From IMG/VR virus record IMGVR_UViG_3300033463_000364: a stretch of 40,880 nucleotides of DNA. One strand, given 5' to 3'. Shown one piece after another: positions 9,699 to 34,363 of this stretch (its first letter is position 1; each line of letters opens with the position of its first letter). Below the pieces are notes generated by a model. That model had not been told where the DNA came from. It searched no databases and saw nothing but the letters and a program-made list of their open reading frames with translations. The position numbers and the translations under genes were made by a program. This DNA comes from a virus.

Positions 9699-10276
9699 AC
9701 CTTATATATCCGAGACAGTGGCTGAAGATTGCCAACAGAGCTTTGAACCTGATAGGAAGCGAGAGCCTCCAGGACTTTGACGACGGCTCACAGGCTGCAC
9801 AGAACATAGAGGTGCAGCTCCCGGCGGCAGTGCAGGAGGTGATGGCCTACCATCCTTTCTGGTGTGCCAGGAAGCGGATGACGCTTGCTCCGCTGGCGGA
9901 CGCCCCTGCCTTCGGATATAAGTTCGCCTATGCGCTCCCTGCGGACTTCTGCTCTCTCGTGGAGGTCCACTCCGGGGATATGAAACTGAAAGGGGAAGAG
10001 TACTCAAGGGAGGGGAACACCATCCTTTCTGACGTGGAGAGCATGGGCATTGTCTATACTGCGCTCCCCGAGACGCCGGAGGCTCTTGTGCCTGCCGTCC
10101 AGGGTGCCATAGTGCACCTCCTGGCCTACAAGCTGGCACAGATAACCACAGCCAACGACGCCCTGACTGCAAGGCTCTTCCAGGAGTACCAGACATCGCT
10201 GGTGGAGGCTGTGAAGCGTGACGGCCAAGGCAGGGGCGACACAGACGGCGAGAGGCCGTGGACAGAGGGAAGATGA
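9695..10276 (+). CDS. Head-tail adaptor (T7 gp11 / tail tubular protein A-like)
   Basis: 193 aa (T7 gp11 is 196 aa). The pattern ANRALNLIGSESLQDFDDGSQAA ... W ... LPADF ... YSREGNTILSD ... VYT parallels the gp11 layout; synteny agrees. Confidence 0.5.
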   Translation: MNLIYPRQWLKIANRALNLIGSESLQDFDDGSQAAQNIEVQLPAAVQEVMAYHPFWCARKRMTLAPLADAPAFGYKFAYALPADFCSLVEVHSGDMKLKGEEYSREGNTILSDVESMGIVYTALPETPEALVPAVQGAIVHLLAYKLAQITTANDALTARLFQEYQTSLVEAVKRDGQGRGDTDGERPWTEGR

Positions 10277-15868: not shown

Positions 15869-18800
15869 TGATGGATTTCAGAGAGCAGTTCGAGATACAG
15901 AAGGAAAAAGACACAGCAAAGGAAGGTTCCTATCTCTCCTTTGAGGAGCAGTTCAGGCAGAACAAAGCAGTAAGGGACTCTTCCGGCATCACGGAACTTC
16001 TGAAAGCCAACATCAAGGACCCGGGAGAGGCCGCCGCAGTGGCAGGCATGACATACACCCTGGCCGACCACTTCAAACAGGATCCTGTCACGATCCTCAA
16101 GGACCTGCCGGGCTGGGCTGCAAAGTACAACGGAATTGTCAAAGATAACAAGGGAGCATGGCAGCAGATATGGGACGCCGCAAAGACCGGATGGGCCACA
16201 GACCGCCTGGGCCGGATAGGTTCTGCACTCATGGTGGACAGGACCCCGGAGGACAAACAGAGACTTATTGACGAGGCGGCAAGCATAAGGGCAGGCATTC
16301 CCGGCACCGAGGGCGACAGCCAGTCCCTGGGAATGAAGATAGCCACATCATCGGCAAACCTTCTGGGAACAATGGTGAGGCCGCTTGTCACCAACCTTCT
16401 CGTGTCAGCACTCATACCGGAGGCCAAGATAGGCGCAGTGATGGGTGACATCGCCAAAGGCATCCCGGCCATAGCCGGAAGAGCCGAGAAGGTGGCCGCC
16501 ATTGCCGCAAGAGCCACAGGGCACGGTGCTCCGTTCCTGGTGACATGGGCAGACACTGCACAGGTGGAGTCCGGAAACATCTACCTTGATATGCTTGATG
16601 CAGGCGTGGATGAGGATATTGCCCGGAAATACGCAGGGGTGCACGGTGCCATAGCCGGAGCACTTGAGGCGGCTCCGCTTGAGTTTGCATTCACGAGGAT
16701 GCCGGTATACAGAAAGGCAGCGCAGACAGCCTTCAACAGGCTCTGCGGAAGAGCAGTGAGCAAGGCAGGTGTGGCAAAAACAATGTCAAGCGCACTGTCA
16801 AACGCATTCATCAACATAGCCTCATCCACCCTATTCGAGACCGTTACAGAGGTGGCACAGGAAGGTTCGGCTGTATATTTCGAGAAGAAGGCCGCACTTG
16901 CACTCCCGGACGAGATCAAGGACGAGAAGCTGCGGAAGATGCTGCCGGAAGCCTACGGCCAGTGGCGGGCATACTATGAGCAGGAAGTGGAGGGCAGAAA
17001 GGACTACTACGAGGGCCAGGAATACAAGGACTATGTTGCCGACAGAGTGTGGGACGTGCTTGTGCAGACAGCACTGGGCACCGCTCCGCTCTCATTCCTG
17101 GGAGCATCCGGCCAGGCGATCTCCGATGTGAAGTACACACAGAGCATAAAGAAAGAGGCCGAAGTGAACCCCTCCAAGCTGAACTTCATAAAAAGGCACT
17201 TCAACGACAGGCAGTTTGACGAGATGCCGAAGGAGAAAAGGGCAGAGACCCTGGCACAGATTTACGAGGACTACCACAGCGGCGAGCGTGTGGATGCCGT
17301 TGACGGCAGCATCCTGGACACCGACTACATCAAGATAAACGAAAGCGAGGAGATGCCGGATGGCGAGGAACAGGCCAGCGAGGCACCGGCAGAACCGCCC
17401 AAGAGAAGAAAGGATAACAGACTCCACACCCAGGAGGCTATAATGCCGGAGAACACAGTGCATCACGATGACGGCTCCGTGTCAAAGATCATTCTGCTGG
17501 GCACTACGGTCAACGACAAGAGATATGGACATATAAACTTCACAATCAAGGACAACGACATAACCATAGACAGCGTGAAGATGCGGGCAGGACAGCAGGC
17601 TCTTACAGAGGAGTTCATCACAGACTTCATGCAGAGGTACAAGGGCTACAACATAAGCTGGGAGCCTGCATCGGAGGCGCAGAAGAAGATAAGAGAGAAC
17701 CTGCTCAACGTAAACAAGGGCACAAAGTACGAGGGGCAGCTCCAGCAGTTCTGGGGCAAGGGCGACCGGGAGCAGATAAACAAGACCGCAAGGCTTATTC
17801 AGGACAAGTTCAAGAACTTCACACCGGACCAGGCAATGGTTGGTGCAGAGCTCCTTGATCTTCTGGCACAGAAGCGGGGCAAGACCCTGAGCCAGCTTGT
17901 CAGCGACGACATGGGCAAGGGCGACATCAGGCTGGGCACAGTCCAGGAGGGCATAGAGCAGGGCGTTCTGGATGCAGACGAAGTGAAGAACAAGCGTGGT
18001 GCCATACAGTGGGCCGCCGATGCGGGCAAGGCTTTTATCTGGGTTGGAGAAAAGGGCGACTTCTCAACCCTGGGCCACGAGGTGACACACTTCGTGCTCA
18101 TGACAGACCCGGAGGCAGCCAAGGAACTGGCAGCCCAGCTCAAGGATGCAGCAGACACGCCGCAGTTCCGGCAGTACCTGGACGAGCACAGGAAGATAAT
18201 GGAGGGAGTCACCGAGAGCAAGAATGATATTGTCTCAAGCCTCACCACAGAGCAGATACTTGACCAGATAAAGAGCCTGCCTGATGAAGTGGAGAAGTGG
18301 ACGACAACACAGCACGAGATAGCGGCCGTCCTGGCAGAGACCTACCTCCAGGAGGGCGAGACATTCAACCCGGAGCTGAAGTCTCTTTTTGACAAGATAA
18401 TTGACTGGTTCCTGAAGATATACGAAATGCTGAAGCGCAAGGCCCACCTGAACGAGGGCATAATTAAGGCATACGACAATCTGTTTACAAAGAACCCGGA
18501 GCTGAAGGAGAAATACGAGGCGCAGCAGCAGGCCGAAGCCGCACAGCAGGGTGCCAGAGAGCAGGGCAAGACAATGTTCCAGGGAGCAACCCCAGAGGAG
18601 CTTGCAGAAGTCGAGAAACAGTACGCCGAAACCAAAGCCAAGTACAAAGGCACAGACCAATGGATGAAAGCCCCGAATGGCAAGCCTACAAAACTTACCG
18701 AGAGACAATGGGTGCAGGTACGGACACCTTACTTCATCCGTTGGTTTGGAGACTGGATTAACGACCCAGAGAACGCAAGCAAGGTGGTGGATGAAAATGG

Positions 18801-21800
18801 CGAGCCATTAGTTGTAGGACACGAAACAAATAATGATTTTACAACATTTGACCCAGAACAAACACAGTATGGTGCATTCTTTTTTGCAAAATATCCAAGT
18901 CAGAAACATCCTTATGGCAAAACAAGGATGGAAACATACCTAAATATCAGAAATCCATATATCATAGAAAGGGATGATTACCCATTCGCACACGAACTTA
19001 CCGATGATGTTAGAGAAGCTAATAATGGTAATGATGGGTCAATATGGATAGATACAGCAGAGGGAAGAAATGTTTATGTAGCCTTCTCCCCTAACCAGAT
19101 CAAATCCGCCACCAACAATGTAGGCACATTCTCTCATTCTAACCTTTCCATATTATACCAGCCAGCTTTCCATGGCTCTGGTGCTTCATTCGATAAGTTT
19201 GACACCGCTTTCATGGGTACAGGCGAAGGAGCGCAGGCTTTCGGGTGGGGTATCTATGCTTCACAGAGCGAGGGTATTGCCAGAAGTTATGCTAACCAAG
19301 CAGCCCAAAAACATGGTGATGATATTTTTGTTATTTCTAATACACCAGTTTCCGAGGAAGTAAACGGCTATATCCATAGAATAGCAAATCATCATAGCGT
19401 TAATAATCTTTATGATTATTCTGCTTTAAGAAAGGCTATCATTGAAAGAATTGAATATCTTGAAAAAACAGTAAACTCTTTTGAAATAGGTATTAAGGAT
19501 ATAGAAAATGCTTTAAGGCAAATAAAACGAAACCCCACAATGACACTTGAAGAGTTTGAAAAACAGTTTACAGATGCTTTTGATGTTCATATAAACGATT
19601 TTATTGCAGGGGCTAAACAGGAAGCATATAAACAAAAGAGAGAGGTTGAAATTAGCGATGTAGCAAATGTTTTACAAGATACACTTAACATCTCTCTTTA
19701 TCCAAGTTACGAAATATACTCTAATGAACTTGATGAACTTAAAAAACTTGATTTACAAAATATAGTATACCAAAAGGGTAGAAATCATCACAACCTTTAT
19801 ACAGTAACCATCCCCGATGACAACGGAAGCAATTATCTGTACTGGGATAAAGAATACACAGCAAAAGAATTTGACAAACTTGCAGAGAGAGTTATCAAAG
19901 CAAACAACCTTGAAGGGAAATGGGGTGCAGGTGATTTACTCCCATTTGATATTGAAGGTGAAGAAGAATTTAACCGCAACCCGACAGGTGAAGAAATATA
20001 TCATGCTATTCAAGATACTGCTGAAAGTCCCAAGACTGCATCAGAATATCTTAATCGTGCAGGTTTTGTAGGTATAGATTATCCAGCTAACAGTTTAAGT
20101 GGTGGCAATAAGTATGGCAAGCGTAACTTTGTAATCTTCAACGCCGATGACATCACAATAGACAAGCACACTATGTGGCAGAACGAGCTCCAGAGGGACA
20201 TCGAAGCCGACCTCATGGAACAGGCCAAGGGGCTGTCGCTTGACGAGTGGATAGACTTTAACAAGTTCCTGGGCGACGAGAACCTGACAGACGACCAGCT
20301 CAAGGCTATCTGGGAAAGGGCCAACAACGCAACCAAGACAGCCGAGGGTGCCACTGTCATATCTGCCGGGGCGATGACCGAGGAGGAGAAGGACACAGCA
20401 TTCTACAACCTTATGCAGACCGATGACGGCATAAGAAACTTCATCCGGGCACTCCGCTTCATGTATAACTTCATGAACGAGATAGACCAGCAGGGCGTGG
20501 GACAGGAAGATATTGAATATCTTGATAAAGTGCAGGAAACACTCAACCTGGCAAACAGCGCAGCACCGAAGATCACCATGATAGCCCAGGGCAAGACTCC
20601 GATAGAGGACATCAAGCCGGAGACAATCAAGAACATCCGGGGAATGATAGTGAACAACCTTACAGACTACCGGGACCTGTACGCAAGGGCCGCCGGCAGT
20701 GAGGATCTTGCCGTGTCCGGTGAAGCACTCCCGCTCATCCAGGAACCGACAGCAGAGACCCAGCGCATGAGCTTTGCCGAGAGGAAGGCTTTTGCCGACA
20801 GGATAGAGGCCCAGGAGCTGAAGAAGAAGATACTGAAAGGCGAGGAGACCTACGAGGGCGAGGCGCAGAAGGTTGTCAAATATCTGGACGGCGAGATAAA
20901 GAAAGGCGAAGTCAAGATAAAGGAACTCCAGGAGGACATCGGCCACAAGCGTGAGGCATTGAGCATGAAGGACAAGAAGCTCTTGAAAGATGCTGAAGAA
21001 AAGAAAGAGGTCGAGAAGAAGCTCAACAGGCTGAACGCAACCATCCGCTCAAAGCTGGACAAGGGTGTGCGCATATCCACAGAGGAATATAAGCGGCGTG
21101 ACAGCCTGATGGAGCGGCTTGACGTCCTCAAGGAAGCCACAGCCCAGCTGGTGAACCAGACAAAGGTAAAGGCCCTTGCAGACAAGCAGGATGCACTCCA
21201 GAAGCTGAAGGATAAATACAAGAAGGACATGGAGCAGCGGCGGCTTGCCAGGGAGATCATAGCATACAAGAAGAAGCTCTGGAACGGCATCATGCGGAAG
21301 GTGTCAAGGAACGTGAACTGGGAGCAGGCCGAGGTAATAAACGCAATCCACCGGCTGCTGGGCGACGTATCTGAAAGCACAAACGAAAACATCACCCTGG
21401 GTGGGAAGATCATGACCCTGAAGGAGTTCAGGGAGGGCGTCGACAAAGGAACCATAGAGGTGGCCGGACTCTCAGACTACCAGCTAAAACGCTACCTGAA
21501 CAAGACCCTTGCAGACTTCACGATCCAGGAGCTTGAAGAGCTCTACGACACAGTTCGCTATCTCACCAAGACAGGCCGCCAGGAATGGCAGGCCAAGGTT
21601 GACCAGCGGAACTACGAGGCCCAGCAGTACAGGAACATCCTCATCAACGAGATAATCAGCAGCCCGAAGTTCAAGGGGAATGAACCGCTGCCGGAGACCA
21701 CTGAGGCTATAAAGAAGAGCCGAGACCTTATGACCATGTTCAAGACAGCATGGTACAAGACCCTGAACATGGCAAGGAAAGCCCAGATCCTGGACAACGG

Positions 21801-23733
21801 CAGAAAAGCAATGGCATACAAGCTGCTTATCTCAGAGAAGCGGGACATACAGGATGCAGAATACAGAGCCATCCGCAACAGGATAAAGAAGATAGACGCA
21901 CTCATGGAGAAGCTGAAGGTTAAGCCGGAGGACTTCTACGAGCAGTTCACCCTTGATATTAAGGGACTCCAGGACAGCACATATACTCTGGCGCAGCTTA
22001 TCTATGGAGTCAAGGCACAGCTCGAGGAGCGCAACCGCCAGGCATTCGCCTACGGCAACCTGGTAAATCAGATCGAGAAATCAAACTACACCGACGAGCA
22101 GATTGAGGAGATAGGCGACAGACGTTACCAGCAGTTCACAGAGCAGGCCCAGAAGATACTTGACGGCAGGCAGAATGTGATGAAGATTGCCGAGGCTATC
22201 TGGGAGGACTGGCAGGACAGGGATAACTTCGACAGGCTCAACCGGGCAGCGATAGAGGAATACAACCAGCCTGTAAATCCAGTACAATTCTACATGCCGA
22301 TAGCAAGGAAGGACTTCAACGGCACCGAGCTCTCGCAGAAGATAGCCAACGACATATACAACATGAACGCAGGCAAGGGCATGACCTCCGTAGAAAAGGG
22401 CATGATCAAGGACAGAATAACCATATCTGCAAGGAACCAGCAGCCGGTTGACGCCGACTATTTCAAGCTGTGGTCCGACAGCGTGGCGGAGCAGGAGCAC
22501 TTCATAGCGACAAACGCCTATGTGCGGAAGCTCAACAGGATATTCAAAGCCCACGGAAGTAAGGACTTGCAGGCTTATATTCAGTCTGTATATGGCAATG
22601 GCATGCTGACCGACATAAACAACTTCATCAACGAGGTGGCAAATCCGGAGGTGAGCAACGACACCCAGGGCATAAACAGATACCTTTCAATACTGAGGGG
22701 TGCCTTATATCCTGCATACCTGGCATTCAAGGCAAGCTCCGTGATACTCCAGATGATAACATCCCCGGCCCCGTTCCTCCGTGAGGTGGGACCGCTTGAG
22801 CTGGCCAAGGGGCTTATACAGATGAGCATGCACCCGGTTGAGACCTGGAGATATGTGACAGGGCTCTCCTCCTTTATGGAGAACCGCTCGATGAACCCAT
22901 TCGTGGAGGAGATCAAGAAGCACTCCAAGGACTACACAAAATCCAAGGCGGGCAAGGCGTGGGACAAATTCCGGGAAGTTGGCACAGCCGGGCTCGAGAT
23001 GGCCGACAAGTGGGCTGTAACAGCCGGATGGCTTGCAGTGTACGACAAGAAGCATGATGAGTTCATCGAGAGTGGAATGACTGAGGAAGAGGCACAGGTA
23101 AAGGCTGTCAAGTATGCTGATGACGTGGTTTACGAGACACAGCCGCTGGGTGACAAGACAGAGCTCGCTCCGCTCTTCAAGGGCGGCAGCCCTGCATGGC
23201 AGGCATTCACACAGTTCCAGGTGAGCCTCAATGTTATCTGGAACAACCTGACCTATGATGTTGCAGTGGGCGATATAAACGGCCACGAGTACAGGAAGAT
23301 GATGGGCACCCTTATAGGCTATGCCCTTGCCGGGGCAATCCTCTATTCTGTCCAGGAGGGCTGGGGAACCGAGGACGACGACACCGCAGAGGAGAAGCTG
23401 CTGAAGATGCTCCGGGCAATCGCCTACGGCAGCACAACACAGTTCACAAGTGCAGTGCCTCTCTTGTCAAACAACGCCGATGCAATCGTTAAGAAGATGA
23501 TAACCGGGGAGAAATGGCAGTACAGGACAAACCAGCTTTATCCTGGCTTTGACGAGCTCACAATGGGAATTGCAACCACAGACTGGAAGAAGATACTTTC
23601 CGGTGCGGCCAAGTTGGGCGGCGTGCCTGTGAGCGGATCCAAGGAGTTCTGGCACGCCATCCACGGCAGGGAAGCTGGCGACTGGCGGCTCAAGCCCGGT
23701 GCATTCCTGGGAAGAAGAGACAAGAAAAAATAA
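15868..23733 (+). CDS. Giant multidomain (polyvalent) internal virion/ejection protein, gp16 position
   Basis: About 2,620 aa (ORF track from 15853; ATG 15868 overlaps the upstream TGA). HEVTH zincin motif at 18076-18090. ART-like module from about 18664 (APNGKPTKLTERQWVQVRTPYFIRWFGDWINDPENASKVVDENGEPLVVGHET ... NQIKSATNNVGTF). FHGSGASFDKFD...GTGEGAQAFGWGIYAS module from 19168. Long coiled-coils and C-terminal hydrophobic segments. Confidence 0.7.
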   Translation: MMDFREQFEIQKEKDTAKEGSYLSFEEQFRQNKAVRDSSGITELLKANIKDPGEAAAVAGMTYTLADHFKQDPVTILKDLPGWAAKYNGIVKDNKGAWQQIWDAAKTGWATDRLGRIGSALMVDRTPEDKQRLIDEAASIRAGIPGTEGDSQSLGMKIATSSANLLGTMVRPLVTNLLVSALIPEAKIGAVMGDIAKGIPAIAGRAEKVAAIAARATGHGAPFLVTWADTAQVESGNIYLDMLDAGVDEDIARKYAGVHGAIAGALEAAPLEFAFTRMPVYRKAAQTAFNRLCGRAVSKAGVAKTMSSALSNAFINIASSTLFETVTEVAQEGSAVYFEKKAALALPDEIKDEKLRKMLPEAYGQWRAYYEQEVEGRKDYYEGQEYKDYVADRVWDVLVQTALGTAPLSFLGASGQAISDVKYTQSIKKEAEVNPSKLNFIKRHFNDRQFDEMPKEKRAETLAQIYEDYHSGERVDAVDGSILDTDYIKINESEEMPDGEEQASEAPAEPPKRRKDNRLHTQEAIMPENTVHHDDGSVSKIILLGTTVNDKRYGHINFTIKDNDITIDSVKMRAGQQALTEEFITDFMQRYKGYNISWEPASEAQKKIRENLLNVNKGTKYEGQLQQFWGKGDREQINKTARLIQDKFKNFTPDQAMVGAELLDLLAQKRGKTLSQLVSDDMGKGDIRLGTVQEGIEQGVLDADEVKNKRGAIQWAADAGKAFIWVGEKGDFSTLGHEVTHFVLMTDPEAAKELAAQLKDAADTPQFRQYLDEHRKIMEGVTESKNDIVSSLTTEQILDQIKSLPDEVEKWTTTQHEIAAVLAETYLQEGETFNPELKSLFDKIIDWFLKIYEMLKRKAHLNEGIIKAYDNLFTKNPELKEKYEAQQQAEAAQQGAREQGKTMFQGATPEELAEVEKQYAETKAKYKGTDQWMKAPNGKPTKLTERQWVQVRTPYFIRWFGDWINDPENASKVVDENGEPLVVGHETNNDFTTFDPEQTQYGAFFFAKYPSQKHPYGKTRMETYLNIRNPYIIERDDYPFAHELTDDVREANNGNDGSIWIDTAEGRNVYVAFSPNQIKSATNNVGTFSHSNLSILYQPAFHGSGASFDKFDTAFMGTGEGAQAFGWGIYASQSEGIARSYANQAAQKHGDDIFVISNTPVSEEVNGYIHRIANHHSVNNLYDYSALRKAIIERIEYLEKTVNSFEIGIKDIENALRQIKRNPTMTLEEFEKQFTDAFDVHINDFIAGAKQEAYKQKREVEISDVANVLQDTLNISLYPSYEIYSNELDELKKLDLQNIVYQKGRNHHNLYTVTIPDDNGSNYLYWDKEYTAKEFDKLAERVIKANNLEGKWGAGDLLPFDIEGEEEFNRNPTGEEIYHAIQDTAESPKTASEYLNRAGFVGIDYPANSLSGGNKYGKRNFVIFNADDITIDKHTMWQNELQRDIEADLMEQAKGLSLDEWIDFNKFLGDENLTDDQLKAIWERANNATKTAEGATVISAGAMTEEEKDTAFYNLMQTDDGIRNFIRALRFMYNFMNEIDQQGVGQEDIEYLDKVQETLNLANSAAPKITMIAQGKTPIEDIKPETIKNIRGMIVNNLTDYRDLYARAAGSEDLAVSGEALPLIQEPTAETQRMSFAERKAFADRIEAQELKKKILKGEETYEGEAQKVVKYLDGEIKKGEVKIKELQEDIGHKREALSMKDKKLLKDAEEKKEVEKKLNRLNATIRSKLDKGVRISTEEYKRRDSLMERLDVLKEATAQLVNQTKVKALADKQDALQKLKDKYKKDMEQRRLAREIIAYKKKLWNGIMRKVSRNVNWEQAEVINAIHRLLGDVSESTNENITLGGKIMTLKEFREGVDKGTIEVAGLSDYQLKRYLNKTLADFTIQELEELYDTVRYLTKTGRQEWQAKVDQRNYEAQQYRNILINEIISSPKFKGNEPLPETTEAIKKSRDLMTMFKTAWYKTLNMARKAQILDNGRKAMAYKLLISEKRDIQDAEYRAIRNRIKKIDALMEKLKVKPEDFYEQFTLDIKGLQDSTYTLAQLIYGVKAQLEERNRQAFAYGNLVNQIEKSNYTDEQIEEIGDRRYQQFTEQAQKILDGRQNVMKIAEAIWEDWQDRDNFDRLNRAAIEEYNQPVNPVQFYMPIARKDFNGTELSQKIANDIYNMNAGKGMTSVEKGMIKDRITISARNQQPVDADYFKLWSDSVAEQEHFIATNAYVRKLNRIFKAHGSKDLQAYIQSVYGNGMLTDINNFINEVANPEVSNDTQGINRYLSILRGALYPAYLAFKASSVILQMITSPAPFLREVGPLELAKGLIQMSMHPVETWRYVTGLSSFMENRSMNPFVEEIKKHSKDYTKSKAGKAWDKFREVGTAGLEMADKWAVTAGWLAVYDKKHDEFIESGMTEEEAQVKAVKYADDVVYETQPLGDKTELAPLFKGGSPAWQAFTQFQVSLNVIWNNLTYDVAVGDINGHEYRKMMGTLIGYALAGAILYSVQEGWGTEDDDTAEEKLLKMLRAIAYGSTTQFTSAVPLLSNNADAIVKKMITGEKWQYRTNQLYPGFDELTMGIATTDWKKILSGAAKLGGVPVSGSKEFWHAIHGREAGDWRLKPGAFLGRRDKKK
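18790..20130 (+). other. AT-rich in-frame island inside the giant ORF
   Basis: Hand counts of 60-nt samples give 38% GC (18781-18840) and 28% GC (19381-19440), against 58% GC (18481-18540) in the flank. Confidence 0.75.
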
Positions 23734-23754: not shown

Positions 23755-25932
23755 ATGCTTACTACCACTATAACAGTGAACAGGTACCAGGTGTCCGGTA
23801 ACAGCTACACCATCGGGTTCCCCTACTGGAAGAAAGAAGAGATCAAGGCGAAAATCACGCTGTCTGACGGATTCATGCAGGATCTTGTCCTTGACACCGA
23901 CTATTCCGTAACAACGCCGAATGGCAACAACGGCACGCTCACCAAGCTGACCGCCTGGACAGGCGCAGCCAAGCTGACAATTTACAGGGAGAGCTCCGAC
24001 ACCCAGGACCTTGACCTAATCCAGGGCGGCAAGATGAACGCCGACACGCTGGAGAAAGGCCTTGACCATGCCATTGCAATCATTCAGGAGATACAGGAGA
24101 GCCTTTCCCGCTCCCTGAAAACCTCCATCGATGAAGCCGGAAGCGACATAGTGTTCCCGGACAAGGCGACAAGAGCCGGTATGCTGATAGGCTTCAACAA
24201 CACAGGTGAGAAGATCTCGCTCCGCAGCCTTGCGCAGTTCGATACAGACGTTTCAAACACTGCTGCAAACGCTTCGGCAGCAGCGGCATCCGCACTGCTG
24301 GCGCAGGACTGGGCCGACAAGCAGACCGAGGTGGTCCCGGGCGAGGACAGCGCAAAGACATGGGCAGGCAGGGCAAGTACCTCCGCCGGAAGTGCTTCCG
24401 TGTCAGCATACAACGCCGACAAGAGCGCAGAGGACGCCGAGGCATGGGCTGTGGGCCAGCGTGACGGCCAGGATGTTCCGGCCACCGACCCGACATACCA
24501 CAAGAACGCCAAATACTATGCAGAGCTTGTTTCACAGATTATCTCCGGCGCAATGAGATACCAGGGTGTGTGGAACATGACCGGGGCCACCGACTACTCC
24601 GGCATAGGCACACCACGACTCAAGGGCGACCTGTTCTACTGCCAGGGCTCTGCCGTGACCATTGACGGGGTGCTCTATACACAGGGCGACCTCATCATAT
24701 TCAACACCGATGTGGCATCCGGCGGCACAATCACCACAGCCGTGCTTGACAAGGTAGACAACACCGAGAGCCTGACTCCTGACAACCTGGCTGAACTTTC
24801 CAACAAGACCATTGACAAGAAGAAAAACACTGTCACCAACTCCCCGACTGTGATAAGTGAGGACACCACGCTGACACCTACCAAGGAGCTCAATGTGGTT
24901 ATCGACACAGCGGGAGTGCAGCTCACACTGGGCAACGGTCCTTATGCCGGATATGAGCTCAAGGTTCTGGCCGCAGCGGACAGCTCTGTGTTCTGCATAA
25001 CATCAGGAGGCAATCTTACAAGAAGGATAGGTGCAGGGTGCTGGACTTCCTTTATATGGGACGGAACCTGCTGGATCAACAGGCTGGGCGAGGTTGAAGG
25101 CGACCTTGAGCTGCATAACGAGATGCGGATGGTTCCAAAAGACATCACGGCATACTTCAATGACGGCTCCCTCTGGGACCGCCTCCACGGAACCAACGGT
25201 TATGCTCTCTTCGAGGATCTGTATGTGGGTGATTACTTCGACATGGGCAGGGCCGTCAAGTCTCCGCACTCCGGAAGCGGCGACGGAACACAGTGGGTGA
25301 CTATCGCCGGAATAGATGCGCTGTTCAATAACGGCTACAACGCAGACAACCCGGCTGATTATATCGATTATCACCACCTGGTTATGGTTCCGGGCAAAGG
25401 GCTGGACGGCTCCCTGACCTTCGGCACAGCCTACATGAACAGTACAAACGTTACAACCGGTGCATACTATGGCTCCTATATGCGGAGCACAATCATAGGA
25501 GATCCGGTGAGCACAACCCCTGGAACCTTCGGCGGAACAATCAACAGTCAGCTCAAGTTCATTTTCAAGGATCACTTGAAAACAACAAGAGAGCTGCTGG
25601 CTACTACCGTGGTGAATACATATTATAACCGGTTCGGCACCAACAGCGGCGCAAGCTCCGCATGGGCATGGTACCCATGCCAGGCAGTGCTCCTGAGTGA
25701 GATTGAAGTCTTTGGCTCTATCGCCTGGTCGTCCTCCGGTTTCGATACCGGAACAGGCAACCACTGGCTGCCTCTGTTCAAGAACAGCAGGGCAAGGAAC
25801 GGCAGAGTGACTTACTGGCTGAAAGACGTGGCCAGCTCGACCGGCTTCGTCTATTCCCACTACAATGGCTTTTCCGCCAACATCAACGCTTCCATTGTTC
25901 ATGGAGTTCGTCCCCGCTTTGTAATCTCGTGA
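23755..25932 (+). CDS. Tail fibre / receptor-binding protein, DGR target
   Basis: 725 aa with RBS AAGGAGG, in the gp17 position. The C-terminal 32 codons are the DGR variable repeat. Confidence 0.8.
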   Translation: MLTTTITVNRYQVSGNSYTIGFPYWKKEEIKAKITLSDGFMQDLVLDTDYSVTTPNGNNGTLTKLTAWTGAAKLTIYRESSDTQDLDLIQGGKMNADTLEKGLDHAIAIIQEIQESLSRSLKTSIDEAGSDIVFPDKATRAGMLIGFNNTGEKISLRSLAQFDTDVSNTAANASAAAASALLAQDWADKQTEVVPGEDSAKTWAGRASTSAGSASVSAYNADKSAEDAEAWAVGQRDGQDVPATDPTYHKNAKYYAELVSQIISGAMRYQGVWNMTGATDYSGIGTPRLKGDLFYCQGSAVTIDGVLYTQGDLIIFNTDVASGGTITTAVLDKVDNTESLTPDNLAELSNKTIDKKKNTVTNSPTVISEDTTLTPTKELNVVIDTAGVQLTLGNGPYAGYELKVLAAADSSVFCITSGGNLTRRIGAGCWTSFIWDGTCWINRLGEVEGDLELHNEMRMVPKDITAYFNDGSLWDRLHGTNGYALFEDLYVGDYFDMGRAVKSPHSGSGDGTQWVTIAGIDALFNNGYNADNPADYIDYHHLVMVPGKGLDGSLTFGTAYMNSTNVTTGAYYGSYMRSTIIGDPVSTTPGTFGGTINSQLKFIFKDHLKTTRELLATTVVNTYYNRFGTNSGASSAWAWYPCQAVLLSEIEVFGSIAWSSSGFDTGTGNHWLPLFKNSRARNGRVTYWLKDVASSTGFVYSHYNGFSANINASIVHGVRPRFVIS
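25828..25922 (+). repeat. DGR variable repeat (VR)
   Basis: Gap-free alignment to 26541-26635 gives 15 mismatches, all at TR adenines. Confidence 0.9.
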
Positions 25933-25941
25933 CTTTAATCC

Positions 25942-25967
25942 CCCACCCCATTGTGGGGTGGGTTTTT
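25942..25967 (+). terminator. GC-rich hairpin plus T5 just after VR (terminator and/or DGR target-recognition hairpin)
   Basis: CCCACCCCA-TTG-TGGGGTGGG followed by TTTTT, 20 nt downstream of the VR end. Confidence 0.75.
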
Positions 25968-25983
25968 GATAGGAGAATAGAAT

Positions 25984-26523
25984 TTGAGTGTACTGAAAAA
26001 CTTGAGAAGCCTGTCCAATATGGAATTTTACAAACAGGCTATCAGTATCAGGAAAACAATCACCACATGGCTTTTGAAGGACTTCAACACAAAGCCCAAC
26101 AAGAAATCCATAAAGATGATTATAAAAGACCTGGATGAGGAGGACGAGAAAATCCTCAATGAGGTTTTCGCCAAGTATGGAAAGACCCTCAATCAAGTTT
26201 TCCAGTCCGGCTATCCCCAGTGGTTTGTAGATTATGAAAGGGGCATCATATCAAGGTGCCTGTCAGATATAGTGCAGAATATCACCAGGGCTAATTCTAT
26301 CTATCCTGTCAATGATAATGAAGTGGAACTGCGGAGGTCGTTCCAGGATGTGGCAATAGCAGAGTGCTACAATTTATACCAGGAGCTGCAATATATTGTG
26401 TCTCTTTTTCCGTCAGATCTGAACAGGTTTATAAACCTGCTTGAGGAGGTGGAGAAAGAGGTGGTACTCCTGAAAGGCTGGCGCAAGTCCGGTAACCGGA
26501 CCGTCAAGGAAAAAGCAAAATGA
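25984..26523 (+). CDS. avd: Avd-like DGR accessory protein (start TTG 25984 or ATG 26020)
   Basis: Helical, basic C-terminus (LLEEVEKEVVLLKGWRKSGNR), located between the target gene and TR as in BPP-1-type DGRs. Longer than a typical Avd. Confidence 0.6.
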   Translation: MSVLKNLRSLSNMEFYKQAISIRKTITTWLLKDFNTKPNKKSIKMIIKDLDEEDEKILNEVFAKYGKTLNQVFQSGYPQWFVDYERGIISRCLSDIVQNITRANSIYPVNDNEVELRRSFQDVAIAECYNLYQELQYIVSLFPSDLNRFINLLEEVEKEVVLLKGWRKSGNRTVKEKAK

Positions 26524-26540
26524 AAAAGGGTGTCTTTTAT

Positions 26541-26635
26541 ATGGCCAGCTCGACCAACTTCGTCAATTCCAACAACAATGGCAATTCCAACAACAACAAC
26601 GCTTCCAATGTTAATGGAGTTCGTCCCCGATTTAT
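26541..26635 (+). repeat. DGR template repeat (TR)
   Basis: AAY-rich; would read ASSTNFVNSNNNGNSNNNNASNVNGVRPRF. Contains 30 adenines, 15 of which differ in VR. Confidence 0.9.
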
Positions 26636-26714
26636 GATGACATATGAAAAGGGTTTATGATCCGTATATGTCCACAAAGGAAAAGGCATCCTGTCCTGTA
26701 AAAAGGCGAATACA

Positions 26715-26760
26715 GCCGGCGATGCGGCCTGGTGCGCCAGGTGCCGCTGTAGACGCCGGC
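26715..26760 (+). ncRNA. Nested hairpin in the TR-RT spacer (probable part of the DGR RNA)
   Basis: GCCGGCG (26715-21) pairs with CGCCGGC (26754-60). This encloses GCGG/CCGC and CCTGG-TGCG-CCAGG. Confidence 0.5.
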
Positions 26761-26767
26761 TCTCTTT

Positions 26768-27823
26768 ATGCTGTTCTCAAGACTGCTTGATTTGAACAAT
26801 CTATATACCGCATTCTATAAATGTTCCCTGGGCGTGCGGTGGAAAGAGTCCGTGCAGAGATATGAGTCAAACGTCCTCCACAATATAAACAAGCTCAGAA
26901 AGCTGCTTATCCGTGGCACATACAGACAGAAGCCCTTTTATGAGTTCGATATTTGCGAGCGTGGCAAAATGAGGCACATCCGCTCTATTCATATTTCTGA
27001 CAGAGTCCTACAGAGAGCCCTGTGTGATTATGTCCTTAACCCGGTTCTCTTCAGATACCTGATATATGACAATGGCGCAAGCGTGAAAGGCAAGGGCGTG
27101 TCCTTTGCAAGAAACAGAATGAAGGTGCACCTGATGAGATACTACAGAAAGCACGGCAGCACCGGGTACATCCTGAACATAGACTACTCAAAGTATTTTG
27201 ACAGCATACCGCATGATTTATTGAAGCAGAAGATAGCCTCAAAGATCGATGACTGCAGGGTGCTTCGGCTGGTGAATTATCTCATAGACACATTCCCCGG
27301 TGACAAAGGGCTGGGTCTGGGTTCCCAGCTCTCCCAGACGTGCGGCATATTCTACCTCTCTGGCATTGACAATTTATGCAAGAATGTAAGACGCTGCAAA
27401 TATTATGAACGGTTTATGGATGATATTTGTATAATCCACCATGATAAGGAATTTCTGAGGACTCTTGAGTGTGAAATAATAAACGAAAGCCAAAAAATGG
27501 GGCTCAATGTGAACACAAAGAAAACCCAGATAATAAGACTCTCAAGAGGTTTTATATTTCTGAAGATACATTACTACATAACAGATACCGGGAGGATATC
27601 AATGGTGCCCGCAAAGAAAGCCTTTATCACCGAGAGGAGAAAGCTAAAGAAGCTGGCCGACAGGCTCCCGAAGGAGGAGCTTGAGAACCAGTATAAGGGG
27701 TGGCGGGGCAGCCTGGTAAAGTTTGACTGCCACAGAAGGCTGATTGAGACCGACAGAATTAAAAAGCAGATACTGAAAAGTGGCACATCACCTCCCAAAA
27801 GTGACACACAAAGGGTACCATGA
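26768..27823 (+). CDS. DGR reverse transcriptase
   Basis: ERGKMRHIRSIHISDRVLQRAL, ILNIDYSKYFDSIPH, GLGLGSQLSQTCG (the DGR-specific [I/L]GxxxSQ motif, 27320-27337), YYERFMDDICII (27413-27424) and GLNVNTKKTQI. Confidence 0.9.
   Translation: MLFSRLLDLNNLYTAFYKCSLGVRWKESVQRYESNVLHNINKLRKLLIRGTYRQKPFYEFDICERGKMRHIRSIHISDRVLQRALCDYVLNPVLFRYLIYDNGASVKGKGVSFARNRMKVHLMRYYRKHGSTGYILNIDYSKYFDSIPHDLLKQKIASKIDDCRVLRLVNYLIDTFPGDKGLGLGSQLSQTCGIFYLSGIDNLCKNVRRCKYYERFMDDICIIHHDKEFLRTLECEIINESQKMGLNVNTKKTQIIRLSRGFIFLKIHYYITDTGRISMVPAKKAFITERRKLKKLADRLPKEELENQYKGWRGSLVKFDCHRRLIETDRIKKQILKSGTSPPKSDTQRVP
27775..27808 (+). promoter_or_regulatory. Paired 13-bp boxes GAAAAGTGGCACA / CAAAAGTGACACA (21-bp phasing), copy 2 of the 34-bp element
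   Basis: Near-identical to 5033-5066, including the spacer (TNNNCTCC). Lies in the last codons of the RT ORF, upstream of the lysis cassette. Confidence 0.6.
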
Positions 27824-27851: not shown

Positions 27852-28148
27852 ATGGCGAGCAGTACAATCATCGCTACAATTTTGACCTCATCAGTTATAG
27901 GCATTTTGATCAACAAGATATTTGACCTTATGGAACGCCGCAGCTCTTCAAACGAGGACTTCCAGTTACTTTTATTGAACGCAATCAAGCAGCAGGCAAG
28001 GGCAGCAATACATGACAGATACATTACTATAGATGACCTTGAAAGCCTGGAAAAGACATACGAGAGATACAAGAAAAGAAAGGGCAACGGCTATGCAGAC
28101 ACCCTGATGAAGAAGGTGCGTGCACTGCCGGTCCGGGAGGATATATGA
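27852..28148 (+). CDS. Membrane protein, possible holin
   Basis: 98 aa with an N-terminal TM (STIIATILTSSVIGILINKIF) and a charged C-terminus; ATGA-coupled to the endolysin. Confidence 0.4.
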   Translation: MASSTIIATILTSSVIGILINKIFDLMERRSSSNEDFQLLLLNAIKQQARAAIHDRYITIDDLESLEKTYERYKKRKGNGYADTLMKKVRALPVREDI

Positions 28149-28552
28149 CATTTGGTGAGTTCATCGTGAAATATCAGAATACAAAGGTTGACTTTGATGG
28201 GGTGGACGGTGCGCAGTGCATGGATCTCTACCGCCAGTACTGCAAAGACATGGGCATTCCACATACCGGCACTGTGAACCCGGACGGAGCAAAGGCCCTC
28301 TACCTGAAGTTCTCCGAGCGCAAGGAAAAGGAATACTTCAACAGGTTCAACTCCAACCTTGCCCGCTTCGGTGATGTCATCGTATGGGACAGGACGCAGA
28401 CAAACCCCTATGGCCATGTGGCTCTGGTGGTCCAGGCGTACCAGCAGGACAAGGTTCTGGTGTTCGAGCAGAACGGCTTTACGCAGAACGGAACACAGTT
28501 TGCTGTGCGTGACCTGAAGAGTGCCCTGGGTGTACTTCGGAAAAAAGCATGA
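28145..28552 (+). CDS. CHAP-domain endolysin (peptidoglycan amidase/endopeptidase)
   Basis: GVDGAQCMDLYRQY (catalytic Cys context) and NPYGHVALVV (His), typical CHAP spacing. Confidence 0.7.
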   Translation: MTFGEFIVKYQNTKVDFDGVDGAQCMDLYRQYCKDMGIPHTGTVNPDGAKALYLKFSERKEKEYFNRFNSNLARFGDVIVWDRTQTNPYGHVALVVQAYQQDKVLVFEQNGFTQNGTQFAVRDLKSALGVLRKKA

Positions 28553-28582
28553 TGTGTGTGAAATATAATAAGGAGATATGAA

Positions 28583-28759
28583 ATGACAAAGAAAATGTAT
28601 GCTTTAGTAAGCGGAATTATCGGTGGTGTGGGAGCAATCGCTTCTGCAATCGTATCTTACACAGAGCCTGCAATGGCCACTGCTATTCTTGCGGCTATCC
28701 CTATCGCTATCACAGCCGTCAACGAGATTATGATGCTGTTTGTGGTGGAGAAGAAATGA
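28583..28759 (+). CDS. Small two-TM membrane protein (holin-like), 58 aa
   Basis: MTKKMYALVSGIIGGVGAIASAIVSYTEPAMATAILAAIPIAITAVNEIMMLFVVEKK with RBS AGGAG. Absent from the ORF track because it is under 60 aa. Confidence 0.45.
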   Translation: MTKKMYALVSGIIGGVGAIASAIVSYTEPAMATAILAAIPIAITAVNEIMMLFVVEKK

Positions 28760-28941
28760 AGAGAATTATCCAGTCAATGTTTTCCGACAAGGAATGGGAC
28801 GCAGACGGCTGTAAGATTACAGGCTTCTGCATAGCATTGTGCGGGTGCGTGCTTTGTTTCTTGCATAATGACCTGGGCGTTCAGCTCGTATGGGCTGGTG
28901 GTGCTATGGTGGCTGGCAAGGCGATCCGGGAGAACACTTGA
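28756..28941 (+). CDS. Small membrane protein (holin/antiholin-like)
   Basis: 61 aa; ATGA-coupled; hydrophobic core ITGFCIALCGCVLCFL ... VWAGGAMVAG. Confidence 0.4.
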   Translation: MKRIIQSMFSDKEWDADGCKITGFCIALCGCVLCFLHNDLGVQLVWAGGAMVAGKAIRENT

Positions 28942-29120
28942 CTGAGAAACAGGTCGAAGCCTACCGCCGGAAGCTGGACGACCCGGAGTATATGAGCCGG
29001 GCAATAGACAAGCTGGCAGAGGAAGCGACAGAGGAGTTTTATGCAGAAAGAGTTAGTGGATATAGCGTTCAACAATTCCATTCGACAGATAAAAAAGGTA
29101 TCGTACCACAAGACGATTGA
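28938..29120 (+). CDS. Possible small protein (TTG start)
   Basis: LTEKQVEAYRRKLDDPEYMSRAIDKLAEEATEEF... in the frame of ORF 28890..29120. Overlaps the next gene by 80 nt. Confidence 0.25.
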   Translation: MTEKQVEAYRRKLDDPEYMSRAIDKLAEEATEEFYAERVSGYSVQQFHSTDKKGIVPQDD

Positions 29121-29691
29121 TGTTGTGTTTGGTGTATACCAGGGCGGCAGCTATGATGGCTGGCTGACGATAAACCTGAAACCGACATCAAGCCTTATTG
29201 ACAAGCTGATAAACGCCGTGGCCTTCGGCACACAGACCGGAGAAGGCCGGGTGCACGCCGGGTACTACAAGGAGATAGTTCACTACTGGGCCGAGTTCTG
29301 GGGTGCGATAACAAACGACAAGGACCTGGTTGCGGCGTCCTGCAAGGGCATACTCATTGCCGGGCGCAGCAAGGGTGCAGCAGAAGCCCTGCTCATAGCC
29401 GTGCGGATGTGGTCCCCGATGTACGATAAAAAGATAATTGTGGGAGCGATAGAACCGCCTCTGGTGTGCGACAAGGAATATGCCAGGTTTGCGGAGCAGG
29501 TGCTGGGCAAGGAGAATATCCAGTGGACATGCTATAAGAATGACATAGTGCCGGGAGTCCCGCCATGGTTCACATTCCCCGGAGTCAAGCACCAGATAGG
29601 CAAGCGGGGCCTGGGGCTCTCCATCAAGGACCATGAGACATCAACGACAAAGGAAGAAGTTATTTATAAAGGGCTGGGATATGTGGAATAA
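29041..29691 (+). CDS. Lipase class-3-like alpha/beta hydrolase
   Basis: RVHAGYYKE followed by ILIAGRSKGAAEALLIA (a G-x-S-x-G nucleophile elbow) resembles the Lipase_3 layout (VHxGF ... GHSLGGA). Confidence 0.45.
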   Translation: MQKELVDIAFNNSIRQIKKVSYHKTIDVVFGVYQGGSYDGWLTINLKPTSSLIDKLINAVAFGTQTGEGRVHAGYYKEIVHYWAEFWGAITNDKDLVAASCKGILIAGRSKGAAEALLIAVRMWSPMYDKKIIVGAIEPPLVCDKEYARFAEQVLGKENIQWTCYKNDIVPGVPPWFTFPGVKHQIGKRGLGLSIKDHETSTTKEEVIYKGLGYVE

Positions 29692-33196: not shown

Positions 33197-34363
33197 ATGA
33201 ATTATCCTAAGCCGTTTAAAAGGGAGGGTTCCGCATCGCTTTTCTTCAACTACACCGACCCTCTGACCGGAAAGCGCAAGCTGAAGTCCACCGGCACGCC
33301 GAGGGTTGGCGAGAGCAAGGAGTTCATCAAGACTTTCATCGACAGGCTCACTCCCTCCGGCTCCATGACCTTCCGGGAGTATGCGTCCAGGTTCTTCTCT
33401 CCCGAGACAAACCCACGATACATCCGCTATAAGATGGCGGGCAAGCAGTACGGCATAGGCCACATCACGACCATGCGGCAGGTGCTGACAAAGCACGTTC
33501 TGTCAAGGCCGTTTGCAGACCTTGAGTTTGCATCCATAAACAGGGGCGATATCCTTGACCTTCTCATGCAGCTGGGCAAGGAGCTGAAGGACCACCCGGC
33601 TACAATCGACAACATCATAAAGTTCATATCATCAATATTTTCCGAGGCATACTACCGGGAGGATTTGAAATATAATCCGACGCAGAGGCTGACCAGGATA
33701 AACTATGACAAAGAGCAGAGGGAAGTCCTGACTCCGGATGAGATAAGGGAACTGTTCAAGGACCCCGGAACCTGGAGGCATAAACTTGATTATGATGTGT
33801 TCCTGTTCGCAGCATATACCGGGCGCAGGTGCGGCGAGATACTGGGGCTACAGTGGGACCAGATAAAGGACGGCTACTGCTACATAGACCGGGCATACAA
33901 CAGAGGGGAAAAGGGGCTGTCTGTCCCGAAGTGGGACAAGAAGGTTATGATACCGCTCTGCCGGACTCTTCTGGAGAGGCTGCCGGAGAGAGGGGAGAGC
34001 CCCTATGTGTTCACATACGAGGGGCACCCGCTGTCATTGAAATGGTGGGACCGTGCATCGAGGCGGGAGCTCAAGTGCCGCTTCCCCGGCAGGAATATTG
34101 TACCGCACTCCTTCCGGCACAGCCTGAACACAAACCTGATACTTGCGCTGGGAGGCCAGGAGATATTCGTGCGGAAATACATAGGATGGACCGAGAGCTC
34201 AAGGGACACTCAGGCGATATATACCCACATTAAGCCCAGGGACCTGAAGTTCATTGCCGACAAGATAGACGAGATGTACTGCCTTGAGCCGCTATCTCAT
34301 AACAATATTGAGAATGGCGATGGCGATGATGACAGTTCCGGCCAGGCCGTAGGGCCAGTATAA
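33197..34363 (+). CDS. int: Tyrosine integrase
   Basis: AAYTGRRCGEILGLQW (box I Arg), HSFRHSLNTNL (H-x-x-R), DTQAIYTHI (catalytic Tyr context). Confidence 0.9.
   Translation: MNYPKPFKREGSASLFFNYTDPLTGKRKLKSTGTPRVGESKEFIKTFIDRLTPSGSMTFREYASRFFSPETNPRYIRYKMAGKQYGIGHITTMRQVLTKHVLSRPFADLEFASINRGDILDLLMQLGKELKDHPATIDNIIKFISSIFSEAYYREDLKYNPTQRLTRINYDKEQREVLTPDEIRELFKDPGTWRHKLDYDVFLFAAYTGRRCGEILGLQWDQIKDGYCYIDRAYNRGEKGLSVPKWDKKVMIPLCRTLLERLPERGESPYVFTYEGHPLSLKWWDRASRRELKCRFPGRNIVPHSFRHSLNTNLILALGGQEIFVRKYIGWTESSRDTQAIYTHIKPRDLKFIADKIDEMYCLEPLSHNNIENGDGDDDSSGQAVGPV

Follow-up and report, generated by a model that had tools for sequence, protein, structure and literature searches.

A complete and apparently active diversity-generating retroelement in a temperate phage of gut Firmicutes

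The 40,880-nt stretch of viral DNA analyzed here, IMG/VR record IMGVR_UViG_3300033463_000364 (hereafter the window), almost certainly carries a complete diversity-generating retroelement (DGR) of a temperate gut Firmicutes phage, probably one of Lachnospiraceae, and the element is apparently active at population level. The cassette occupies approximately positions 23755–27823 and comprises, all on the + strand, a tail-fiber gene with a variable repeat (VR) close to its 3' end, a gene for an Avd-like accessory protein, a non-coding template repeat (TR) and a reverse transcriptase (RT) gene. A sequence-only reading of the window had proposed such a system. This interpretation is supported by the repeat pair itself, by sister contigs from other samples, by the RT and the Avd-like protein, by a hairpin downstream of VR and by covariation in the RNA surrounding TR.

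Position-by-position comparison of the two repeats reproduced the originally described pair exactly: positions 25828–25922 align to 26541–26635 over 95 bp without gaps, at an offset of 713, with 15 mismatches that all fall on an adenine of the downstream copy. This copy contains 30 A, 28 C, 23 T and 14 G in its 95 bases, and none of its 65 non-adenine positions differs from the upstream counterpart; the chance of 15 out of 15 mismatches falling on adenine is P = 1.4e-9 (hypergeometric). An independent repeat search returned the pair as 25829–25925 and 26542–26638. When both strands of the window were searched, no additional repeat copy was found, and no second or remote VR.

The mutagenized interior of VR spans 25829–25916 (+ strand). 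TR lies at 26542–26638 (+ strand), is non-coding, and consists of a core (26542–26629), whose interior contains 27 adenines, and a 3' end (26630–26638) resembling IMH* (IMH, initiation of mutagenic homing). The initial attribution of all 15 mismatches to mutagenesis holds for the 12 interior ones, each of which is at a TR adenine (12/12; hypergeometric P = 8.5e-8) and which produce substitutions in VR between 25834 and 25905. It does not hold for 25828, 25917 and 25921: these differences are the same in all seven related contigs described below and are therefore fixed boundary differences rather than products of mutagenesis. Nor is VR literally the last 95 bp of the fiber gene, as had been stated. 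The stop codon is at 25930–25932, so the repeat lies near the gene end but finishes 10 nt short of that codon.

Read in the frame of the 725-aa open reading frame (ORF), the template holds 12 AAY codons, rather than the approximately 13 counted earlier. Nine of them are altered in VR, to GGC, TAT, CAC, TAC, TTT, GCC, ATC, ATT and CAT, which is exactly the list given in the sequence-only reading. The randomizable codons comprise these 12 AAY codons, each convertible to NNY with 15 possible amino acids, together with one AGC and one ACC codon, with four amino acids each. Over these 14 codons, the theoretical repertoire of the protein tip amounts to 15^12 × 16, or ~2e15 protein sequences.

As a population-level substitute for read mapping, we compared the window with six sister contigs from other gut metagenomes (L063–L068), recovered through the 90%-identity cluster of the target protein, which comprises six sequences. 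A search with the TR pattern in which adenines were masked as N gave no match in viral, genome or metagenome contig collections. The target proteins of the sister contigs are 95–97% identical to that of the window, and about half of their amino-acid differences fall within residues 694–716, at Asn-templated positions. Across the seven contigs, TR is 100% identical and VR occurs as five distinct haplotypes. Compared with TR, these haplotypes carry 75 differences, 74 of which replace an adenine (34 by G, 22 by T and 18 by C) and one of which is C-to-T. Of the 27 adenines in the TR interior, 26 are replaced in one or more haplotypes. In the aligned cassette of the seven contigs, variable columns make up 30.7% of VR (27/88), 9.5% of the target gene upstream of VR, 6.3% of avd, 4.3% of the spacer between TR and the RT gene, 9.4% of the RT gene and none of TR (0/88), which makes the non-coding TR more conserved than every neighboring gene. 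Among the non-adenine positions of VR, 1 of 61 varies. The variation is thus confined to VR at TR-adenine sites, with an invariant TR, as the sequence-only reading had anticipated. Both an invariant TR and VR non-adenine sites that stay matched to it are predicted by repeated one-way overwriting of VR from TR, and this sequence pattern suggests that mutagenic retrohoming is apparently continuing at population level in the lineage. The sole non-adenine difference between VR and TR is a synonymous C-to-T change (ACC to ACT) at the equivalent of window position 25842; it is found in L064 and L065, which come from different samples, and reflects either an ordinary point mutation that postdates homing or a rare mistake of the RT at a non-adenine base.

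The same comparison bears on whether the cassette is a relic, that is, whether diversification took place in the past, the machinery is now non-functional and the VR differences are old inherited alleles. Two pairs of contigs from different samples do share identical VRs (L064 with L065, and L066 with L068), so that not every sample has a VR of its own. On the other hand, the ORFs of the RT, avd and the target are all uninterrupted and retain the catalytic and signature residues; the non-coding TR is variable at 0 of 88 positions compared with 6–10% in its neighbors; the non-adenine positions of VR are still matched to TR, which implies repeated overwriting; and five VRs occur among genomes whose target proteins are 95–97% identical. 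We consider a relic improbable, and favor a DGR that apparently is still at work in the lineage.

The RT gene (26768–27823, + strand) encodes a protein of 351 aa that matches RVT_1 (E = 9e-17) and phrog_1423 (E = 6.7e-77). Its best solved relative is the Bordetella RT bRT (PDB 8ub7; E = 1e-20, 77 bits), with group II RTs at 1e-9 or weaker. We located both of the motifs noted in the sequence-only reading: GLGLGSQLSQ begins at residue 181, with LGSQLSQ at residues 184–190, and FMDD is at residues 216–219. In the alignment with bRT, IGSLTSQ corresponds to LGSQLSQ and YMDD to FMDD, and bRT residues F66, R74 and I76 are matched by F60, R69 and I71 of the window protein. The motif [I/V/L]GxxxSQ is the signature of DGR RTs, whereas group II and retroviral RTs carry QGxxxSP, and R74 and I181 of bRT promote adenine mutagenesis (PMC7826257). 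The signature motif, the intact FMDD and the closest solved homolog mark the enzyme, by its sequence, as a DGR-type RT, and the SQ-type motif together with bRT as nearest solved relative sets it apart from the RTs of retrons and group II introns.

These data also address another explanation, in which the 3' end of the target gene was duplicated in the ordinary way, in tandem or as a dispersed copy, and diverged neutrally beside an unrelated retron, group II or defense RT. The NCBIfam search of the RT returned no DGR-specific family, and its best profile was group_II_RT_mat (93 bits), followed by weaker Drt and retron profiles, but every one of these matches is far under cutoff (93 vs 300 bits for the best). 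Neutral divergence is likewise at odds with mismatches restricted to adenine (P = 1e-9), an asymmetry that recurs in related loci. Among the IMG/VR loci with RT relatives of 34–59% identity, 45 of 62 carry a repeat pair in which at least 80% of mismatches are adenine-biased; these loci mostly share the VR-avd-TR-RT layout, and those with no detected pair are mostly truncated on the upstream side. Genome loci reached through the Avd family show both this layout and an adenine-biased pair in six of six cases. In addition, the motif is LGxxxSQ and not QGxxxSP, the closest solved relative is bRT, and an Rfam search of the spacer RNA returned no family, with neither intron RNA domains nor retron msr/msd among the results. 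The probability we assign to such a duplication next to an unrelated RT is close to nil.

The avd-like accessory gene (25984–26523, + strand) encodes a protein of 179 aa. Its TTG start codon is supported by the N-terminus MSVLKNLRSLS, which is conserved across the Avd-like family. The protein matches phrog_3206, annotated as Avd protein of DGR, with E = 2.6e-4, and 25 of its 34 Avd-like relatives match the same family, the best with 6.5e-7; searches of Pfam, NCBIfam and PDB sequences and profiles gave no match for it. The AlphaFold2 model (pLDDT 75) consists of four long helices and an inserted segment at about residues 36–78. Its top Foldseek matches are 2gsc and 2rld, which are PF05635-type bundles (prob 1.0), and its top matches in BFVD are phage entries named 'Avd-like protein' (prob 1.0, TMt 0.80). 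Bordetella Avd (4dwl) matches with prob 0.84 and TMt 0.66, and TMt values against the 4dwl, 2gsc and 2rld bundles range from 0.66 to 0.81. On the basis of family and predicted fold, we accept the protein as a long-form Avd-like four-helix bundle, which by analogy may form a pentamer and bind the RT; the earlier call of an Avd-like helical protein between VR and TR is supported at this level. It shares with the Avd/PF05635 bundles (4dwl, 2gsc and 2rld) the predicted superposition of four helices and, with avd, the gene position between VR and TR, but differs from them in being ~50–70 residues longer, in its inserted helical segment and in its lack of a Pfam match. The extra segment of ~45 aa (residues ~36–78) lies between helices 1 and 2 of the bundle, is modeled with low-to-moderate confidence and is conserved throughout the 34-member family.

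The RNA around TR shows conserved structure. For the spacer RNA, defined as 26639–26767 from the end of TR to the RT start, RNAalifold analysis of 15 relatives found compensatory changes in 22 of 26 pairs. Of the alignment cells at paired positions, 94.7% could pair, compared with 74% in shuffled alignments, none of which reached the observed value (0/500), and with 28–49% in slid-partner controls. One stem-loop (26639–26672, + strand) begins right after TR, at the place that the Avd-binding stem-loop takes in the Bordetella RNA, and shows compensatory changes in all 6 of its outer pairs. Another, a long two-part GC-rich stem-loop (26714–26761, + strand), closely precedes the RT start, corresponding in position to the RT-binding stem-loop, with compensatory changes in 16 of 17 pairs. 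In addition, the centroid fold contains an 11-bp long-range duplex that brackets TR. Its 5' strand, which resembles cPRT Stop, is GGGUGUCUUUU (26528–26538, + strand), and this pairs with the 3' strand AAAAGGCAUCC (26681–26691, + strand), which an invariant AAGGA (26677–26681) precedes.

Relatives show an equivalent duplex with different sequences. Because MAFFT misaligned the short upstream strand, we evaluated this pairing with an alignment-free permutation test that compares duplex energies between cognate and non-cognate strands. Over 17 distinct relatives, cognate upstream and spacer strands averaged -13.6 kcal/mol, as opposed to -5.3 for non-cognate combinations (permutation p <= 5e-5), and in 15 of 17 cases no partner ranked above the cognate one. 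The AAGGA rule used in this test mis-anchored one locus, L069, an error that biases against the result and not for it. RNAalifold had also drawn a local GGA/UCC hairpin in the spacer (helix 2); it is invariant, and we rejected it because the long-range duplex, formed with the sequence that lies upstream of TR, explains it better. A match to SCARNA11 in the Rfam search, on the opposite strand and with E = 0.56, was attributed to chance.

Cryo-electron microscopy of the ribonucleoprotein (RNP) from BPP-1, a Bordetella phage, revealed an Avd-binding stem-loop, a 'cPRT Stop' duplex and a bRT-binding stem-loop, and the same study predicted RNA elements of this kind for 207 of the 278 Avd-type DGRs it considered (10.1101/2023.10.23.563531). 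The elements in the window match these in position, and by analogy would bind the corresponding proteins. Past the 26681–26691 strand, all relatives carry a short stem-loop followed by an A-rich motif of the type GGCGAAUA (26705–26713). Together with AAGGA, these features resemble the 'stem-loop followed by adenosines' of cPRT Stop. We also observed ORFs called over TR. In the Avd relative P0277, the called ORF reads through into TR and ends in the C-terminal tail '...NANNNGNANYNRAGNANGYVRPRF', and on L063 and L068 a 46-aa ORF was called over TR, equivalent to window positions 26520–26660. These are most likely gene-calling artifacts on a non-coding template.

At its 3' end, VR has an IMH-like organization (25906–25925, + strand) consisting of an adenine-free GC-rich stretch, fixed differences from TR and a decay of homology. 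VR and TR share without change the stretch GTTCGTCCCCG (25906–25916), which is 11 nt long, adenine-free and G+C-rich. Next come the two fixed differences, at 25917 and 25921, where VR has C and G and TR has A and A in 7/7 contigs, and homology between the repeats fades beyond 25921. In BPP-1, the arrangement of (GC)14 and IMH/IMH* sets directionality (PMC3240598), and by analogy the 3' end of VR in the window may function like IMH in this respect.

Beginning 16 nt after the repeat, a GC-rich hairpin with a perfect 9-bp stem, CCCACCCCA TTG TGGGGTGGG, is followed by a run of five T (25942–25967 in total, + strand; stem-loop at 25942–25962). GC-rich hairpins occur 14–43 nt past VR in 14 of 20 loci (the window and 19 relatives), with differing stem sequences, and a T-run is mostly absent after the hairpins of the relatives; among the loci compared, only that of the window has one. 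Since the stems differ and most lack a T-run, the hairpin appears to be conserved as a structure and not merely as a terminator. In BPP-1, a hairpin/cruciform after VR is required for retrohoming (PMC3240598). The hairpin at 25942–25962 is thus, by analogy, a candidate DGR target-site hairpin/cruciform and also a candidate terminator of the target gene. Across the clade, the 5' arm of the post-VR hairpin is C-rich and the 3' arm is G-rich, and the loop has the form YTTGY or TTGC on the sense strand, which reads GCAA-like on the antisense strand. The hairpins of BPP-type phage DGRs have GRNA tetraloops on the sense strand (PMC3240598).

The target gene (23755–25932, + strand) encodes a 725-aa tail protein/tail fiber with VR at its C-terminus (residues ~693–721). 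Residues 1–123 match PHROGs annotated as tail protein or tail fiber, namely phrog_1640 (E = 1.3e-15) and phrog_6518 (E = 7.7e-11), as well as phrog_13893 and phrog_13980 (E = 3e-3 for the weakest of the four). The gene is the last structural gene ahead of the DGR and the lysis genes: a head-tail adaptor, the major head protein, a tail protein (phrog_376, 10258–12165) and a 2626-aa ORF precede it, and a CHAP endolysin follows. Based on the N-terminal tail-attachment domain and the position in the tail module, we identify the target as the phage tail fiber, with receptor binding as its probable function by analogy.

Pfam and NCBIfam searches of the target returned no accepted family, and the ~600 aa past residue 123 carry no annotation. 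The C-terminal 285 aa belong to a family of 751 database proteins, many of them free-standing and ~320–340 aa long. The last 85 aa match DUF6273 (PF19789) with E = 0.0022 and 18.3 bits, under the curated cutoff of 23.5, and 13 of 90 relatives of the tip match the same domain, with a best value of 2.6e-5. DUF6273 has been linked to the C-lectin fold in DGR variable proteins (PMC10743442). An AlphaFold2 model of the last 285 aa, computed from a 90-sequence alignment, has a pLDDT of 52 overall and below 50 over VR; this low-confidence model gave no usable Foldseek match, and the tip had no PDB profile match. The relatives in that alignment all share ~50% identity with the query and resemble each other closely. 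We regard the poor model as a technical failure and not as evidence against the C-type-lectin-like fold raised in the sequence-only reading.

In an otherwise genuine DGR, the target could instead be a different protein of the virion surface or an adhesin, such as a decoration or mucus-binding protein like tentaclin or Hoc. Several tail-fiber and tail PHROGs match the N-terminal anchor, with E down to 1e-15, and the gene closes the tail module, with the DGR and the lysis genes right behind it. VR is also C-terminal, as in fiber-type targets, while that of tentaclin is N-terminal (PMC10743442). Against this stands the fact that the tail and tail-fiber PHROGs cover only residues 1–123 and leave the other 600 aa without a family, and that the DUF6273-type targets of gut phage DGRs include non-fiber proteins (PMC10743442). 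We judge a non-fiber target unlikely, if still worth keeping in mind, and retain the tail fiber as the target in what follows.

Taken as a DGR, the cassette would operate as follows, with RNP assembly, cis-priming, cDNA integration and receptor binding by the tip carried over from BPP-1 by analogy. A transcript running from the end of avd through TR and across the spacer would fold so that the 11-bp duplex brackets TR and two stem-loops form in the spacer, and the folded RNA would be bound by the RT and the Avd-like protein. cDNA synthesis would be primed in cis from the spacer and halt at the bracketing duplex. The C, G and U of TR would be copied accurately, bases would be inserted at random opposite A, and the resulting cDNA would replace VR at the 3' end of the tail-fiber gene. 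Targeting would depend on the IMH-like end, which is adenine-free and rich in GC, and on the GC hairpin downstream of it, and the TR/VR mismatches beyond the IMH-like end would keep the transfer one-way. The predicted outcome is a set of ~2e15 possible receptor-binding tips, with 12 NNY-randomizable Asn codons and two more on a constant scaffold.

Several observations weigh against this interpretation or parts of it. The Avd assignment is weak by sequence score (E = 2.6e-4) and has Foldseek E-values of 0.1–0.4, and the protein is ~50 aa longer than canonical Avd. The predicted fold of the tip is of low confidence, given the pLDDT of 52, the absence of a PDB match and the sub-threshold DUF6273 score. 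With its T5 run, the hairpin of the window is also plausible as a plain terminator. Lastly, haplotype diversity reports activity in the lineage, not its rate or the present activity of this copy.

The relatives point to gut Clostridia. The genome matches are metagenome-assembled genomes of Butyrivibrio, Lachnospiraceae, Clostridiales and Treponema and one bin labeled Prevotella, and one Avd relative bears a name taken from Mediterraneibacter faecis. Among named phages, the closest RT is that of Roseburia phage Shimadzu (42%), followed by nd12 (37%) and the Faecalibacterium phages Roos and Pioen (35%); a megablast search of the cassette against GenBank phages gave no nucleotide match. The window also encodes a tyrosine-type integrase (33197–34363). 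From the hosts of the relatives, the closest named phage RTs and the integrase, we conclude that the window belongs to a temperate phage of gut Clostridia, whose host is probably a member of the Lachnospiraceae. The closest relative among species genomes, L069 (CAVGBY010000006.1; 62% Avd identity and an identical DGR layout), is in the bin 'uncultured Prevotella sp.' and is probably a mis-binned phage contig.

The cassette shares with the BPP-1 system (mtd-avd-TR-brt) the order target(VR)-avd-TR-RT, the adenine-specific transfer from TR to VR, the AAY codon design and the C-terminal location of VR in a tail-fiber-type protein. It also shares an adenine-free GC-rich stretch followed by IMH/IMH*-like mismatches, a GC hairpin after VR, and spacer RNA stem-loops with a TR-bracketing duplex. 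The two systems differ in several respects: the RT of the window is distant from bRT (77 bits, E = 1e-20), and its Avd has 179 aa with a ~45-aa extra segment; the adenine-free stretch is 11 nt long, whereas BPP-1 has a 14-bp GC-only block; the hairpin loop is a 3-nt TTG, with YTTGY/TTGC loops in the clade, compared with GRNA in BPP-1; no similarity between the target and Mtd was detected; and the hosts are probably Gram-positive gut anaerobes.

DGRs that act on phage tail fibers are abundantly documented, and those of gut Firmicutes phages with targets of the DUF6273 type are among them (PMC8144416, PMC11792537, PMC10743442). Like the DUF6273-target DGRs of Lelie, Roos, Pioen, nd4/nd12 and Shimadzu, the cassette belongs to a temperate, Clostridia-type phage of the human gut, has an RT of the same broad group and carries VR at the C-terminal end of a putative DUF6273-like region (PMC11792537, PMC10743442). 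It differs from them in that the cassette has no nucleotide similarity, RT identity is at most 42% and the DUF6273 match is sub-threshold. Furthermore, its target is a 725-aa protein with a fiber anchor, not a short single-domain protein or a tentaclin with an N-terminal VR.

The system is therefore of an ordinary, well-known kind and leaves current knowledge unchanged. Only mildly new are the long-form Avd, the hairpin-loop pattern of the clade and the clean covariation for the RNA elements flanking TR. Far from Bordetella, this covariation supports the RNA elements, a bracketing duplex and two stem-loops, that the BPP-1 cryo-electron microscopy study proposed as universal. On sequence evidence, the window documents a DGR of textbook completeness in a temperate, uncultured phage of the gut, useful for phage-family annotation and for reasoning about host range. 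Speculatively, the long-form Avd, the antisense GNRA-like hairpin loops and a DUF6273-like tip that neither Pfam nor AlphaFold2 resolves could define a distinct DGR sub-lineage in Lachnospiraceae-type gut phages, an idea we hold as doubtful. If these differences were functional, RNP assembly or target-site recognition, for instance the strand of the hairpin loop, would differ in detail from that in Bordetella.

Beyond the cassette, the window may be a near-complete genome, and no tRNA genes were found in it. The 2626-aa ORF directly upstream of the target (15853–23733, + strand) matches only PHROGs of unknown function, and its 2618-aa homolog on L063 matches PF18760 (ART-PolyVal). Downstream of the RT gene, at 27852–29691, the window encodes a small PHROG-4105 protein, a CHAP-domain endolysin (28145–28552) and a Lipase_3-domain protein (29041–29691), the Pfam match of the last being taken from the sister contig L063.

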